In this document: one piece after another, positions 5,879 to 34,780 of the stretch
Layout: every line of letters starts with the position of its first letter
How positions within the stretch are numbered: the stretch's first letter is position 1
Position numbers and translations under genes: made by a program
The notes under the pieces: model-generated
What the model was told of the DNA's origin: nothing
Database searches by the model: none
What the model saw: only the letters and a program-made list of their open reading frames with translations
IMG/VR virus record: IMGVR_UViG_2703718839_000008
Strand: one strand, 5' to 3'
Origin: a virus
Lineage: Duplodnaviria; Heunggongvirae; Uroviricota; Caudoviricetes
Length of the DNA: 42,613 nt

Positions 5879-6241
5879 TTAATGACCTGCTGCGCGGAGT
5901 TTTCCGTCAGGTTCACCGGCAAGAGTCAGTAATTGTCCCTGGTCTTCCTGCAGAATAGTCAGGCGACCACCGCGATTGACATACATCGGCGTTTCGGTGG
6001 TGTCTTCTTCGGAAATTTTCCCGCGGTTAGTCGGGCGAACATATGAGAGTTTGTGTTTGATTTTCACACGGTTCTCATCAAATGGTTCGATTTCCAGGTT
6101 GAGTGAGACCTTCCCTTTGGTTTTCGTGTTCATCACACCGGAAGCGACTTCACTGAGAACTGCGCCGATTTTGGTTTCAAATACGCCGCCGTCCAGCTCC
6201 CCGATAAATGCCTGCACATCAGTACTGCGTTCGCTAGCCAT
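5879..6241 (-). CDS. YfdP-like hypothetical protein, 120 aa
   Basis: Internal ATG (MASERS...) with GAGGAG RBS; the longer ORF-track N-terminal extension runs through the GC-rich leader and is not protein-like. Confidence 0.55.
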   Translation of the reverse strand: MASERSTDVQAFIGELDGGVFETKIGAVLSEVASGVMNTKTKGKVSLNLEIEPFDENRVKIKHKLSYVRPTNRGKISEEDTTETPMYVNRGGRLTILQEDQGQLLTLAGEPDGKLRAAGH

Positions 6242-6289
6242 TTTGCTGCTCCTCATCATATCGACCCTGCAAGGTCGGTTGGTTTCTCC

Positions 6290-6560
6290 ACAAAACAGAG
6301 AAGAACACCTGCGGTGGCAGCCGCCCGGATGGATTGGGTTATGAGCCCGTCGTCCGGTGATGCTCTTCTCTGTTTTGTAAAAAGAGCGGTACCAGCCGGA
6401 AGCAAGTGTACAAACTGGTACCGCGAGGACTACACACAGCATAAAGTTGTGGTGCCGGGTGCCTCCCGGTGCCTGGCGAAGGTTGCACACCAGGCGGGTG
6501 GGTATCCACAGAAGGTCGACTGTCAGCCTCAACCTTAACCCGCGTGCGCTGAGCCGCATT
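6290..6560 (-). promoter_or_regulatory. GC-rich structured leader in the leftward early transcript; candidate cis-acting RNA (antitermination or processing element)
   Basis: Long-range inverted repeat caaaacagagaaga (6297-6310) / tcttctctgttttg (6373-6386); perfect hairpin ggtaccag...ctggtacc (about 6399-6433); boxA-like CGCTCTTTTTACAA on the minus strand; no credible ORF. Confidence 0.35.
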
Positions 6561-6678
6561 CACCACAACGCTAAGGATTCTCTCTGGTTGAAAATACTTA
6601 GCTGTTATGTGCCTGTCTTTTCACCACTTCAGGCTCGGTGGTATCCTTTTAAGCCCGTATACATAAAAGGAAAATCAA

Positions 6679-6924
6679 ATGACTTTTGATGAAAAAGAAC
6701 TTGATAATGCAATTAATAAAATCATCGTAACGTCGCTCTTTTCCTGTCTCAGCGACACTCAGCAGAAACAGTTCTACGAATCGGCTTTCAACATGATCGA
6801 GCGTTGTTGTTTCTGCGATGCCGACGAGTTACCTGAAAAAATCAGGAAACAGTTGGCTGATGCTCTTCGAGTGCGACTTTCTGACCAATTTTCTGAAATG
6901 TGCTCTCCGAATTTGGACAAATAG
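6679..6924 (+). CDS. Small hypothetical protein, 81 aa
   Basis: ATG with AAGGA RBS; plausible helical protein; convergent with and overlapping the 6842-7117 minus ORF, so one of the two may be spurious. Confidence 0.35.
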   Translation: MTFDEKELDNAINKIIVTSLFSCLSDTQQKQFYESAFNMIERCCFCDADELPEKIRKQLADALRVRLSDQFSEMCSPNLDK

Positions 6925-7117
6925 AAAAAGGCCATTTCCATTCAGGGTCTGATGGAAATACTTCAGCCTGTTCCAAAGCACGGCGTAAAGAGAATACAAC
7001 TCCAGCCATAATCTGATGTTTCCCATTGGTCCAGCTATCGCCGCTCTGATCTACAGGAGCGGCTATGTCGTATGACCAAACGACTTCACCACTATTGTTT
7101 AAAATCTGGACTTTCAT
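6842..7117 (-). CDS. Small hypothetical protein, 91 aa, first ORF downstream of pL (N / nun / rex-equivalent position)
   Basis: Starts about 115 nt downstream of the predicted pL start site; GGAGG upstream; overlaps the plus-strand ORF by 83 nt. Confidence 0.35.
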   Translation of the reverse strand: MKVQILNNSGEVVWSYDIAAPVDQSGDSWTNGKHQIMAGVVFSLRRALEQAEVFPSDPEWKWPFSICPNSESTFQKIGQKVALEEHQPTVS

Positions 7118-7234
7118 TTTGTTCTTTAACCTCCAGATACGGGCGTTTAATGGCCCCGCCGAACAGCTCTTTTCCGCAATAGCTGCAATGTCTTTCGCGC
7201 ATCAGCCTGCGCATTCACCACAACTCTAAAAACA

Positions 7235-7264
7235 AATGTAGGATATCCAACATGTGAGTGTCAA
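7235..7264 (-). promoter_or_regulatory. pL-like early leftward promoter
   Basis: Minus strand TTGACA (7264-7259), 18-bp spacer, TACATT (7240-7235), overlapped by an operator; mirror image of pR. Confidence 0.5.
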
Positions 7265-7288
7265 GAGTTTATGTTGGTTATCCTACAT
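7236..7288. promoter_or_regulatory. OL operator sites (two 18-bp near-palindromes)
   Basis: atgtaggatatccaacat (7236-7253) and atgttggttatcctacat (7271-7288), the same motif as at OR. Confidence 0.6.
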
Positions 7289-7301: not shown

Positions 7302-7330
7302 CATAAAAAAACCGGGGATACCCCGGTTTT
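7302..7330 (-). terminator. Rho-independent terminator downstream of the repressor gene
   Basis: accgggg-ata-ccccggt stem followed by TTTTTTT on the minus strand. Confidence 0.6.
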
Positions 7331-7350: not shown

Positions 7351-8004
7351 TCAAAAATCCATTATTACTTGTTTGACAAGACCAACTATTCTGCAGTTCT
7401 CACCGCATTCAATAGTTTTATAGTTAGGATTTAGTGGGACGAGATACCTGTTCGGCCAGTCCTCAACAAATTTTTTGAGTGTCGCTTCTTGCCCACCATT
7501 GATATGGGCAACAACGATTTTTCCGTTAATACACTCTGTATCAATAATATCTGGCTCTACGATAACGATAGAACCTTCTGGTATCGATGGTGAGCCGAGG
7601 GGATTGGTCATTGAATCACCACGGACCCGTAGTGCAAATGCCATTTCTGATACAAGGGCGGTAGTATAAACCCACTCTTCAGCATCTTCTTTCCTGACAC
7701 CAGGCTCCGTCATTGTCCATGAACCCGCCTGAACCCACGAGATGAGGGGGACTTTTTTAACTGCGAATATTTCAGGTTTTAGATTTATCTTTGGTTCAGG
7801 CGAGCCTTTTCCGCTAACAAGCCACAGAGGATCGCATTTAAGTGCGTTGGCTAGGGCTTGAAGGTTGGCTCCATTTGGTTGGTAGTCGTCCTTTTCCCAT
7901 CCAGTAACCGTGACACGGTTCACACCAGTCAAATCAGCCAGTGCTTGTTGTGTCAGGTTCAGTTCTTTTCGCCTTTGGCGAATACGATCACTCATGTTCA
8001 TCAT
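7351..8004 (-). CDS. CI-type prophage repressor (N-terminal HTH, C-terminal S24 LexA-like autopeptidase)
   Basis: N-terminal ...LNLTQQALADLTGVNRVTVTGWE HTH; C-terminal GDSM Ser and downstream Lys; divergent from the Cro-like gene with operators between. Confidence 0.85.
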   Translation of the reverse strand: MMNMSDRIRQRRKELNLTQQALADLTGVNRVTVTGWEKDDYQPNGANLQALANALKCDPLWLVSGKGSPEPKINLKPEIFAVKKVPLISWVQAGSWTMTEPGVRKEDAEEWVYTTALVSEMAFALRVRGDSMTNPLGSPSIPEGSIVIVEPDIIDTECINGKIVVAHINGGQEATLKKFVEDWPNRYLVPLNPNYKTIECGENCRIVGLVKQVIMDF

Positions 8005-8067
8005 GTAGGCAATCCTACCACATGCCCATGTAGGATTCTTGACATTGGTATGTTGGATATCCTACAT
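8003..8067. promoter_or_regulatory. OR operator cluster (three sites)
   Basis: atgtaggcaatcctacca (8003-8020), atgtaggat half-site (about 8029-8037), atgttggatatcctacat (8050-8067). Confidence 0.6.
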
Positions 8068-8068
8068 T
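8039..8068 (+). promoter_or_regulatory. pR-like early rightward promoter
   Basis: TTGACA (8039-8044), 18-bp spacer, TACATT (8063-8068), overlapping an operator. Confidence 0.55.
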
Positions 8069-8099
8069 TCTGCTTAACGTAATTTAACGGGAGACAGAA

Positions 8100-8297
8100 A
8101 TGCGGAAATCCGACGTGATTAATTATTTCGGCGGAGTTTGTAAAACCGCCGAAGCCCTAGGTATTAAGCATCCGTCTGTTTCAGAGTGGCCTGAGATTAT
8201 TCCTGAAGGCCGAGCGTACCAGTTAGAAAAAATTACTAACGGGAAACTGAAAGTTGACGTGTCTTTATATCAAAAGACTAACAGTGCTGCGGCATAA
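8100..8297 (+). CDS. Cro-like / YdaS-like small HTH regulator
   Basis: 65 aa; first gene after pR; GGGAGA RBS. Confidence 0.6.
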   Translation: MRKSDVINYFGGVCKTAEALGIKHPSVSEWPEIIPEGRAYQLEKITNGKLKVDVSLYQKTNSAAA

Positions 8298-8324: not shown

Positions 8325-8909
8325 GTGGGTAAAGAACCTGAATGGAAAGTTGATAAACAACCAGCATGGCTGGTGGCAGCAATACGAAGAACGATTGCTG
8401 ATTTACCTCATGGCTATGAGGAAGCAGCAGAAATTCTTGGTTTGTATAAATCTGATGATATCACCCCAGCAAAAGATCAATTGCATAACAGACTGCGTAG
8501 CGGTGGGGATCAAATTTTTCCACTTGAGTGGGCCATGGTTTTACAGGATGCCAGTGGTACCAGGCATGTAACAGATGCAATAGCCCGTCGTAGTAATGGG
8601 GTGTTTGTGCCGCTGGTGGTCATTGATGACATTGACAATGGTGACATTAATCAGCGGCTGATGGAGTCAATAGAATGGATTGGCAAGCATTCCCAGTACT
8701 TACGCAAGGCAACTGCTGATGGAGTTATTGACCAAGCTGAGCGTGAGCAAATCGAAGAGAACAGCTACCAAGTAATGGCGAAGTGGCAGGAGCATTTAAC
8801 ACTGTTATTTCGTGTTTTTTGTGCGCCGGAAAAGAGTAACGCCCGCGAGTGTGCAGCTCCGGGCGTCGTGGCGTCGATTGCTTCTGGTTGTGGAGAAACT
8901 AACGCATGA
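8325..8909 (+). CDS. CII-like / YdaT-like early regulator, 194 aa
   Basis: GTG start with GAGGAA RBS; position after Cro-like gene; family assignment from recall only. Confidence 0.4.
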
Positions 8910-34232: not shown

Positions 34233-34780
34233 TGAGGGCGATTGAAACCATACAGCGACAACTCCTCGGGCTGATTGGGCGGGCCGTGGTGAAAAGCATC
34301 AGTGCCGCAACGAAATGTCAGACCGTGGATGTGTCCCTGATTGCCGGTGAACCCAAAGCCGGGGTTGAACATCTTGAACCTTACGGTTTTACCGCAAGGG
34401 CAAACAGCGGTGCGGAAGCGGTGGTGTTGTTTCCGGATGGCGACCGTTCTCATGCGGTGGTTGTTACGGTGTCGGATCGGCGTTACCGCCTGAAAGGGCT
34501 GCAGACGGGTGAGGTGGCTGTCTATGACGATCAGGGGCAGTCCGTGACGCTGACCCGGGAGGGGATCGTGGTGGACGGTGCAGGTAAAACGATCACGTTT
34601 CGCAATTCACCTAAAGCACGTTTTGAAATGGACCTGGAAGTGACAGGACAGGTGAAAGACCTGTGCGACTCCAGCGGCACCACCATGTCAGCGATGCGGC
34701 TTGCCTATAACGGGCATCGTCACAGAGAGAACGGTCAGGGCAGTAACACCGACAAACCTGATAAAGCGATGGAGGCATGA
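34232..34780 (+). CDS. Baseplate spike / assembly protein V-like (Mu gp45-like)
   Basis: Position and size; translationally coupled. Confidence 0.6.
   Translation: MRAIETIQRQLLGLIGRAVVKSISAATKCQTVDVSLIAGEPKAGVEHLEPYGFTARANSGAEAVVLFPDGDRSHAVVVTVSDRRYRLKGLQTGEVAVYDDQGQSVTLTREGIVVDGAGKTITFRNSPKARFEMDLEVTGQVKDLCDSSGTTMSAMRLAYNGHRHRENGQGSNTDKPDKAMEA

Follow-up and report, generated by a model that had tools for sequence, protein, structure and literature searches.

The stretch of DNA analysed here (hereafter the window) is 42,613 nucleotides (nt) long and comes from a virus of the Caudoviricetes (IMG/VR record IMGVR_UViG_2703718839_000008). Its immunity region carries two small genes, here named A and B, that face each other on opposite strands and overlap at their 3' ends. 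Judged by how their diverged copies have evolved, A and B are both real, linked protein-coding genes, and the DNA upstream of B holds a conserved element homologous to the region that precedes sieB in phages lambda and P22. Our preferred reading, to which we assign a probability of roughly 55%, is that the pair and this sieB/sas-type element form one cassette, in which B would be expressed in the lysogen and shut off by antisense RNA; a role of the SieB/Esc kind is our guess. The features that carry this reading are as follows.

7117-6842, minus strand: gene A, 91 amino acids (aa), ATG start, family phrog_3195, the same as orf33 of SfV (from the open reading frame (ORF) list)
6679-6924, plus strand: gene B, 81 aa, ATG start, family phrog_3311 (from the ORF list)
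6842-6924, both strands: antiparallel coding overlap of the 3' ends of A and B, 83 nt
6608-6678, minus strand: conserved control element of 70 nt that precedes B, with homology to the DNA ahead of sieB in lambda and P22

The overlapping gene pair A-B

The two ORFs, their ribosome-binding sites and the 83-nt overlap had been described in an earlier reading of the bare sequence (the original prediction), and all were recovered when the sequence was read again. The ribosome-binding site of B (AAGGA, 6667-6671) lies 7 nt ahead of the ATG, and that of A (GGAGG, 7134-7130 on the minus strand) 12 nt ahead. In 113 related loci (108 and 5 remote ones), reaching down to about 30% protein identity, A and B were found together, convergent and overlapping in every case. 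The 108 loci, which comprise contigs from the protein search (Salmonella and metagenomes) and IMG/VR, Klebsiella and Yersinia loci, all contain the pair (108/108), and the distance from start to start is exactly 439 nt in each. Both partners are also kept in the remote pairs (L111, L113, L114, L115 and L117), where this distance is 430-442 nt, even though A is joined there to other domains or carries a tail of unrelated sequence. Differences in start-to-start distance and insertions or deletions among lineages are multiples of 3 only, the coding overlap in other lineages measures 63-161 nt, and the start codons, ribosome-binding sites and lengths of both genes are maintained down to about 30% identity. 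Diverged homologues of A (51-68% identity), found in Salmonella and in metagenome assemblies, are always the first gene after the repressor gene, and every contig with such a homologue has an antisense B homologue at the same place. Across six or more immunity types, A always comes first after the repressor gene in the downstream direction and shares its strand.

Selection was measured by the Nei-Gojobori method over nine lineages, as the ratio of nonsynonymous to synonymous differences per site (pN/pS).

B codons 1-40, own frame: pN/pS 0.27
B codons 24-54, own frame: pN/pS 0.25
A codons 1-64, own frame: pN/pS 0.32
the other five frames of these three stretches: pN/pS 0.85-1.7, or stop-ridden
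overlap, B frame: pN/pS 0.54
overlap, A frame: pN/pS 1.03
A codons 92-122, the extension found in the 122-aa forms: pN/pS 1.29

For the B stretches, the values in the other frames were 0.87-1.5 where these were not stop-ridden. Outside the overlap, the third codon positions are the most variable ones in both genes. Since the diverged copies keep the pair and each gene is under purifying selection in its own frame, we consider both A and B to be genes. Inside the overlap, position 1 of an A codon coincides with position 1 of a B codon, A position 2 with B position 3, and A position 3 with B position 2. The least variable position there is B position 2 (A position 3), and therefore B dominates the constraint in the overlap. 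As regards an antiparallel coding pair, selection in each frame and conservation in relatives were both found, and within the overlap a constraint of its own was seen in the B frame only.

The tail of A behaves in keeping with this. Depending on the lineage, A is 91, 93, 100, 108, 122 or 126 aa long, and residues 92-122 of the 122-aa forms are clearly an unselected run-on. Because the length of the tail varies and the extension is unselected, the conserved core of A can be placed as ending at about residue 64 (WKWPF), exactly where B ends, and the tail is largely overprinted on the constrained C-terminal helix of B. The tail motif F.K.G..ALE is kept in moderately distant homologues, which might simply reflect the constraint on B. 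Genome assemblies often contain frameshifted alleles of A, and in some cases of B (P0051, P0024, P0026, P0035, P0046, P0050); a truncated A allele of 54 aa (P0051) recurs on 126 contigs from genomes of about 5.5 Mb in which B is kept, and A may be decaying in some resident prophages while B stays.

Both products are acidic proteins devoid of membrane segments (isoelectric point 4.95 for A and 4.56 for B), with a maximum 19-aa hydropathy of 0.8-0.9. As the original prediction had proposed, they were submitted to profile searches and structure prediction, and no known family was recovered. Neither had a family match in Pfam, NCBIfam, PADLOC or PDB sequences, the only PADLOC match being SspC at E 0.035 and 10 bits, which is noise. 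To this extent the earlier statement that neither protein belongs to a recognised family holds; PHROG families do exist for both, since A falls in phrog_3195 and B matches phrog_3311 (E 1e-55), two families without assigned function. An exhaustive search with a hidden Markov model of A retrieved 19 representative proteins among 1.84 billion. Homologues of B occur in E. coli, Salmonella, Klebsiella and Yersinia. The best AlphaFold2 (AF2) model of B, with a predicted local distance difference test score (pLDDT) of 76.6 against 52-59 for the other four, shows three helices, and comparison with PDB and BFVD folds gave nothing below E = 1; the model of A (pLDDT 47) was unusable. We also considered the CCxC motif of B as an obligate metal site and discarded it, the cysteines being gone in the remote homologues L114, L115 and L117.

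The cassette is present in 404 of 5426 complete E. coli genomes (about 7%) and in prophages of Salmonella, Klebsiella and Yersinia. Two scans of GTDB representative genomes found no cassette; it is accessory and missing from these species representatives. With regard to the candidate novel module of the original prediction, the two genes are real and linked; they have already been called hypothetical proteins many times in databases, A being orf33 of SfV.

The sieB/sas-type element upstream of B

The control element at 6608-6678 is kept in every lineage, even where the proteins can barely be aligned, and the DNA further left is unrelated. Its parts, together with a candidate promoter, are the following.

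6611-6615 / 6630-6634: helix 1, GCCTG / CAGGC
6623-6627 / 6638-6642: helix 2, ACCAC / GTGGT, interleaved with helix 1 so that a pseudoknot results
6644-6650 / 6665-6671: helix 3, a hairpin, TCCTTTT / AAAAGGA
6620-6647, plus strand: candidate promoter PB, with -35 TTCACC (6620-6625), a 16-nt spacer and an extended -10 TGgTATCCT (6639-6647)

When the pairs were counted by script on arms parsed by hand (MAFFT puts the Yersinia-type and L111-type rows out of register), all three helix cores were seen to pair in 13 of 13 lineages, with compensatory double changes; in the third helix, one position shows four different Watson-Crick pairs. Rfam has no family that covers either the control element or the sas RNA of P22.

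With a short query, the 35 nt at 6608-6642 were found again in lambda (34394-34428) and P22, at 94% identity. In lambda, P22 and their relatives, this 35-nt element lies upstream of sieB, between ral and either N or gene 24. In the P22-pbi GenBank record (AF527608), the homology is directly followed by the promoter PsieB, whose -10 is at -43 to -38 from the sieB ATG, then by sieB with the internal start of esc, and then by the convergent gene 24, which begins 20 nt after the sieB stop codon. The sieB/esc/sas system of P22 and lambda reportedly goes back to work by Ranade & Poteete in 1993. During lytic growth of P22, the antisense RNA sas switches the translation of sieB from SieB to the inhibitor Esc (PMC12197685, PMC7067206), and sieB is expressed from the prophage (PMC10461980). 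The sequence of the 127-nt sas RNA, published in a 2026 small-RNA sequencing paper, contains ...CGAGAACCACCGAGCCUGACGUGGUUAAAAGACAGGCAC...; from its start, 5 nt within sieB, the RNA runs over the ribosome-binding site and PsieB and finishes in ...UUCUCG-loop-CGAGAA-CCACCGAGCCUGACGUGGU-UAAAAGA-CAGGCAC... (PMC13397905). This end is the minus-strand counterpart of the hairpin and the interleaved helices of the window (alignment A8). Since the end of sas matches the element on the minus strand, the covariation of the element is explained by the structured 3' domain of a sas-type RNA.

Given the homology of its upstream control element to the sieB region, B can be assigned to the sieB slot, and by sequence comparison it is an unrelated cargo in a slot of this type. 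The likeness extends to the arrangement: in both cases a rightward gene lies antisense within the operon of the leftward early promoter pL and converges on the first gene of that operon, a homologous upstream element is followed by a hairpin, and a -10, in B that of the candidate promoter, lies about 35-45 nt before the ATG. The cargo and its partner are different. SieB has 192 aa and belongs to PF14163, whereas B has 81 aa, is acidic and helical and has no match to this family; and the partner gene A is not an N-type antiterminator. Esc of P22 has an internal start, and no such start with a ribosome-binding site is visible in B (Met39 is kept in most lineages, is absent in L113 and L115, and is not preceded by a Shine-Dalgarno-like sequence). 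The partners A and B overlap in their coding sequences and are never found apart, while gene 24 of P22 lies 20 nt beyond sieB, and the P22 promoter hexamers are not conserved at B.

Of the sigma-70 candidates in the 220 nt ahead of B, PB reaches the best weight-matrix score in 11 of 12 lineages and the second best in L111. Its -10 is always in the same place, at -37 to -32 from the ATG (-39 to -33 in L010 and L097). Transcription of B is predicted to start at about 6653-6656, which would give a leader of about 25 nt.

The same element precedes other cargo. In the e14 prophage of E. coli K-12 it lies upstream of ymfI (97.9% identity over 48 nt); in SfII it is followed, 35 nt downstream, by a rightward ORF of 63 aa (SfII_36, L121 1377-1568), which makes a fourth kind of cargo; and in Rac-type phages the gene behind it is sieB. 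B, YmfI and SieB are mutually unrelated, as are A and YmfJ (hhalign). K-12 e14 is arranged as the window is, with a LexA-like repressor, pL, a leader, a convergent overlapping pair, the element and then STnc100. In its gene order (L118 2454-3041), the repressor ymfK, pL and the leader are followed by ymfJ on the minus strand, convergent with ymfI on the plus strand over a 63-nt overlap. It differs in that its proteins have no detectable similarity to A or B and the hairpin after the element does not lie over the ribosome-binding site. The pairs ymfI-ymfJ and sieB-ydaF of Rac have been listed as convergent excludons on the basis of K-12 RNA sequencing (PMC12288877). Late in the SOS response, ymfJ rises by about 4-4.8 log2 units and ymfI by only 1-2 (PMC11002266), and this behaviour is expected for a pL gene that faces an independently transcribed gene. 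The K-12 Rac genes ydaG and ydaF were examined as homologues of A and B and are not homologous.

The immunity region and the mosaic joints of the cassette

Around the cassette, the window has the following features.

7351-8004, minus strand: cI-like repressor gene with helix-turn-helix and peptidase S24 domains (library matches)
7308-7330: hairpin of the repressor terminator
8100-8297, plus strand: cro-type gene
8325-8909, plus strand: cII-type gene
7236-7253 and 7271-7288: OL operators, repeats of the type ATGTAGGATATCCAACAT common to OL and OR
about 8005-8070: OR operators, of the same repeat type ATGTAGGATATCCAACAT
7264-7235, minus strand: pL-like promoter (TTGACA, 18-nt spacer, TACATT) that overlaps operator OL1 (promoter scan)
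7140-7229, minus strand: remnant of a second pL leader allele, of which the 5' (pL-proximal) half is left (seen in alignment A1 with Stx2c_EH0430 and mEp460)
7214-7092, minus strand: 40-codon ORF, the first ORF leftward of pL, in the leader remnant
6934-6941 / 6952-6959: perfect 8-bp hairpin, ATTTCCAT / ATGGAAAT, with a 10-nt loop, in the part that codes for A only
6599-6377, minus strand: STnc100 small RNA or structured leader, downstream of the cassette on the pL transcript (Rfam RF02076)
left of STnc100 in the pL operon, minus strand: yfdP-, yfdQ- and yfdR-like genes

The cassette was thus rightly placed by the original prediction, between the repressor terminator and OL (7236-7288) on one side and the structured leader on the other. 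The pL-like promoter would drive gene A, which has no promoter of its own, and would give an RNA antisense to gene B. A is the first gene of the early-left operon of pL, a position held by N in lambda and by gene 24 in P22. In Salmonella (L005 2552-3706 and L006 375-1529), the repressor gene and A are separated by an inserted gene, which encodes a 384-aa protein with a restriction-endonuclease-like N-terminal (HSDR_N) domain; this looks like a separate moron of the defence type in the same hot spot.

Positions 6240-7119 are 98.3% identical in SfV, whose sequence then passes into another immunity region; Stx2c phages (Stx2c_EH0430) and mEp460 agree with the window on the immunity side and do not have the cassette. 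Because these homologies break at the joints, the cassette is sharply bounded, by the start codon of A (about 7119) on the right and by about position 6608 on the left. In Stx2c_EH0430 and mEp460, the second leader allele is intact and lies directly after pL, and in the window its remnant is joined to the SfV-type cassette at about 7119-7140. That 7140-7229 is a leader remnant explains both a 20-nt direct repeat (6555-6574 and 7210-7229), which is the shared 5' end of the two leaders (CGCATTCACCACAAC[G/T]CTAA, plus strand), and the spurious 40-aa ORF. We rejected an insertion with target-site duplication, as the alignment with Stx2c, mEp460 and SfV identifies the repeats as the 5' ends of two leader alleles at a mosaic joint. 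The 40-aa ORF (7092-7214) was likewise rejected as a gene, as it lies in the leader remnant, has 25 codons in the intact allele and lacks the second CxxC. The motif CSYCGK occurs in it, and a neighbour is called 'ClpX zinc finger' by PGAP; the ClpX-finger protein of E. coli 1409 is a different one, of 67 aa.

The STnc100 match scored 49.1 bits against a gathering score of 47 (E 6e-9), and the leader allele of Stx2c and mEp460 was not recognised as STnc100 by Rfam at E up to 0.01. STnc100 has been tied to the PasD family of small RNAs in a recent preprint (10.64898/2026.05.13.724894). Between STnc100 and yfdP, we observed a 25-nt imperfect inverted repeat (84%; 6290-6314 / 6354-6378) and a perfect 10-bp GC-rich hairpin (6386-6395 / 6415-6424; GCGGTACCAG / CTGGTACCGC), which on the minus strand is followed by the T-rich stretch CTCTTTTTAC and is probably the 3' terminator of the STnc100 small RNA or leader. 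In RefSeq, a pseudogene named 'frameshifted hypothetical protein' spans this RNA region (L016 2157-2467).

A further conserved non-coding leader of about 65 nt (AACAGGCAGGACGCCCACGAAGTAGCCGCC.GGGGCATACGAAG.CCGGGATGATTCG) is absent from the window and was found right after pL in 43 phage records, among them SfV, SfII, SfIV, ST64B, mEp237, YeP1-3, ZF40 and Pantoea AH07, being annotated in none. It lies at 3060-3135 of L118 (e14), at about 3900-4000 of L001 (SfV), upstream of A in L006, L009, L013 and L105, and on the far side of the cassette in L097 and L098. It could be an RNA-based antitermination or regulatory element of phages that lack N. In Stx2c_EH0430 (L003 4875-5063), IsrK (RF01394) and the C4 antisense RNA (RF01695) were found side by side, about 2 kb from the immunity region.

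The perfect hairpin at 6934-6959 had been located within the overlap by the original prediction; it starts 10 nt past the B stop codon and hence lies outside. It is missing from other lineages, an equally good hairpin is given by 6.9% of shuffles of the region, and no part for it is evident. As a terminator of B it was rejected, since it has no U-tract on either strand and is not conserved.

Proposed expression of the pair, alternative readings and meaning

By analogy with sieB and ymfI, B would be made in the lysogen, rightward from PB in or next to the element, and since pL is repressed there, B would be the only product of the region. Once the repressor is removed, pL would fire and A would be the first gene transcribed. 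On induction or infection, the leftward pL RNA, or a sas-like RNA derived from it, would run antisense over the message, the ribosome-binding site and the promoter of B, and B would be shut off by RNA pairing and transcriptional collision; owing to this antisense shut-off, A and B would be made in mutually exclusive states. What we infer in this proposal is where the promoter lies, when each gene is expressed, that B is shut off by antisense RNA, and what the biological role is. As A and B are small, acidic and soluble, they are more likely to act on proteins than on DNA. With low confidence, we would guess by analogy that B is a prophage accessory or exclusion factor and A an early protein that relieves or replaces it in lytic growth. 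The SieB/Esc logic is favoured because of the strict linkage, the predicted reciprocal expression and the acidic, putatively protein-targeting products.

Several observations weigh against this reading. Folding of the element as a single sequence is not exceptional (z -1.2 to -1.6), and seven G-U pairs at the helix ends fit the plus strand slightly better. Lambda and P22 do not keep the -10 of PB (TATCCT), and their PsieB is placed further downstream, so that the assignment of PB is an independent prediction. Inside B, a search for a minus-strand promoter that could give a discrete sas-like RNA showed none that is conserved and consistently placed; read-through from pL would provide the antisense strand anyway. 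The expression data from e14 concern a cargo that is not homologous to A-B. B itself is unrelated to SieB: hhalign of B against P22 SieB gave a probability of 0.2%, and B has no match to PF14163, which P22 SieB matches at 4e-29. In view of the negative PADLOC search, it is by position only that an exclusion role is suggested for B. Finally, the linkage of A and B could partly stem from an overlap that leaves no neutral joint for recombination, and not from a shared function.

The original prediction had seen in this region a slot for lysogeny genes such as those for exclusion or defence. This is partly supported: B, behind a sieB/sas-type element, is a good candidate for a lysogen-expressed gene, whereas A is no equivalent lysogeny gene and is the first early gene of pL. 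For an exclusion or defence activity the comparison gave no backing, since PADLOC had no match, neither A nor B has similarity to SieB, Rex or Nun, and both are soluble acidic proteins, whereas SieB is a membrane protein. BstA/aba of BTP1, rexAB of lambda and nun of HK022 are prophage defence genes that adjoin the repressor gene and have built-in self-immunity. They share with A-B the neighbourhood and a prophage function that needs to be neutralised for the phage's own lytic growth; they differ in having no sequence or domain similarity to A-B and in running in the direction of the repressor gene, B being antisense to the pL operon. Closer in layout are the excludons, where convergent genes have overlapping transcripts; in A-B the transcripts must overlap, as the coding regions do, and a strong inducible pL would face a weaker constitutive candidate PB. 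Reciprocal expression is documented for the positional analogue ymfI-ymfJ only. In typical excludons it is the untranslated regions that overlap, whereas A-B overlaps over 83 nt of both coding sequences and has a structured antisense-RNA domain attached.

A wider version of the preferred reading is that the sieB/sas element is a general plug-in platform for swappable prophage cargo (SieB, YmfI, SfII_36, B), each silenced by an early antisense RNA. In this version A-B would be a new exclusion or abortive-infection system, A an Esc-like self-immunity factor, and the overlap would lock effector and antidote together against recombination. Taken as a whole, we regard this as rather unlikely.

Among the alternatives, the one that survives best is a toxin-antitoxin-like or host-kill module, with A as an early toxin or kil-type protein, B as the antidote that protects the lysogen against a leaky pL, and the 3' overlap adding RNA control. 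The strict co-inheritance and the predicted reciprocal expression would suit it, and kil-type genes occur in the same operons (neighbours KilR and Lambda_Kil). The convergent overlap of 3' ends is also the layout of the type I toxin-antitoxin pairs txpA/RatA and bsrG/SR4, which are likewise borne by prophages. However, A and B are both conserved coding genes and neither encodes a small hydrophobic peptide; A, being acidic, soluble and free of membrane segments, is unlike a type I toxin. The co-directional, autoregulated operon of type II systems is not what we see in the convergent A-B, and neither protein matches any toxin or antitoxin family. The frameshifted A alleles with B kept (P0051) fit an A that is dispensable or mildly harmful, and are silent on B as an antidote. 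On this balance we think the module improbable.

We judge as quite improbable that the pair modulates proteolysis and the choice between lysis and lysogeny, with A, at times accompanied by a ClpX-type finger, acting early on the ClpXP or repressor pathway and B tuning the same pathway in the lysogen. In the metagenomic locus L113 (101-664), a ClpX C4 zinc finger (PF06689, above the gathering score at E 3.8e-7) is joined to the front of the A domain, and in E. coli 1409 (L015 3027-3230) a free-standing 67-aa ClpX zinc-finger protein lies directly upstream of A, with a BRCT-domain gene between this pair and the repressor gene; moreover, A occupies the position of the early regulators N or gene 24. 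Yet only two of about a dozen lineages show the link to the zinc finger. In others (P0064, P0065), A is joined to another small domain, one that elsewhere is encoded by its own neighbouring gene, so that the fusions may only reflect the merging of neighbours, and they are too sporadic for assigning a function. A search for N/Nun-type features in A found no arginine-rich N-terminus or motif, no nucleic-acid-binding character and no Pfam match, which speaks against a regulator of that kind.

The element could instead work through the plus strand, giving the B message a structured 5' leader made of a hairpin switch and, after it, a hairpin that hides the ribosome-binding site; B would then be controlled at translation and not by a sas-like antisense RNA. 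The third helix does pair UCCUU with the B ribosome-binding site AAGGA, and covaries, and the seven G-U pairs are allowed on the plus strand only. Against this, no promoter was predicted or conserved upstream of 6608, where the flanks are unrelated between lineages. PsieB of P22 has been mapped to a position downstream of the element, whose opposite strand is represented in the sequenced sas RNA. The hairpin also persists in e14, lambda and P22, where it leaves the ribosome-binding site uncovered. Loop lengths (1-3 nt, then 6-8 nt and A-rich) suit a canonical H-type pseudoknot, as far as we can deduce, on the minus strand only; on the plus strand, a loop of 1-2 nt would have to cross a stem of 5-6 bp. 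We regard such a leader as quite improbable too.

That only A or only B is a gene, and the other a shadow ORF kept open by its partner's codon usage, is hardly credible: annotators never call both (SfV, RefSeq and PGAP call A only, vB_EcoM-720R4 calls B only) and the A frame is unconstrained in the overlap (1.03) and in the extension (1.29), but two thirds of each ORF lie outside the overlap, with a pN/pS of about 0.3 in its own frame only, the opposite-strand frames are stop-ridden, and starts, ribosome-binding sites, lengths and the three-nt periodicity of insertions and deletions are all kept.

A search of the literature on SfV orf33 and on antiparallel overlapping genes in prophages gave nothing relevant, and the dual-coding, always-paired nature of A-B and its tie to the sieB/sas region appear not to have been reported previously. 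To our knowledge, conserved antiparallel overlaps of two protein-coding genes are rare in bacteria and often disputed. A-B provides a clean comparative case, with 13 or more lineages, no separated partners and insertions or deletions in multiples of three only. Current pipelines annotate either A or B, never both, so that every annotated genome systematically lacks one family. Thirty years ago the sas/PsieB region was worked out, as far as we know in P22 only; it can now be connected with further prophage cassettes whose cargo is unrelated, ymfI/ymfJ of K-12 among them. Lysogen-specific genes at the pL-proximal hot spot may thus share a reusable expression platform under RNA control. A, B and their K-12 analogues are concrete candidates for exclusion or self-immunity functions, and ymfI/ymfJ offers a system in a model strain for the whole idea.

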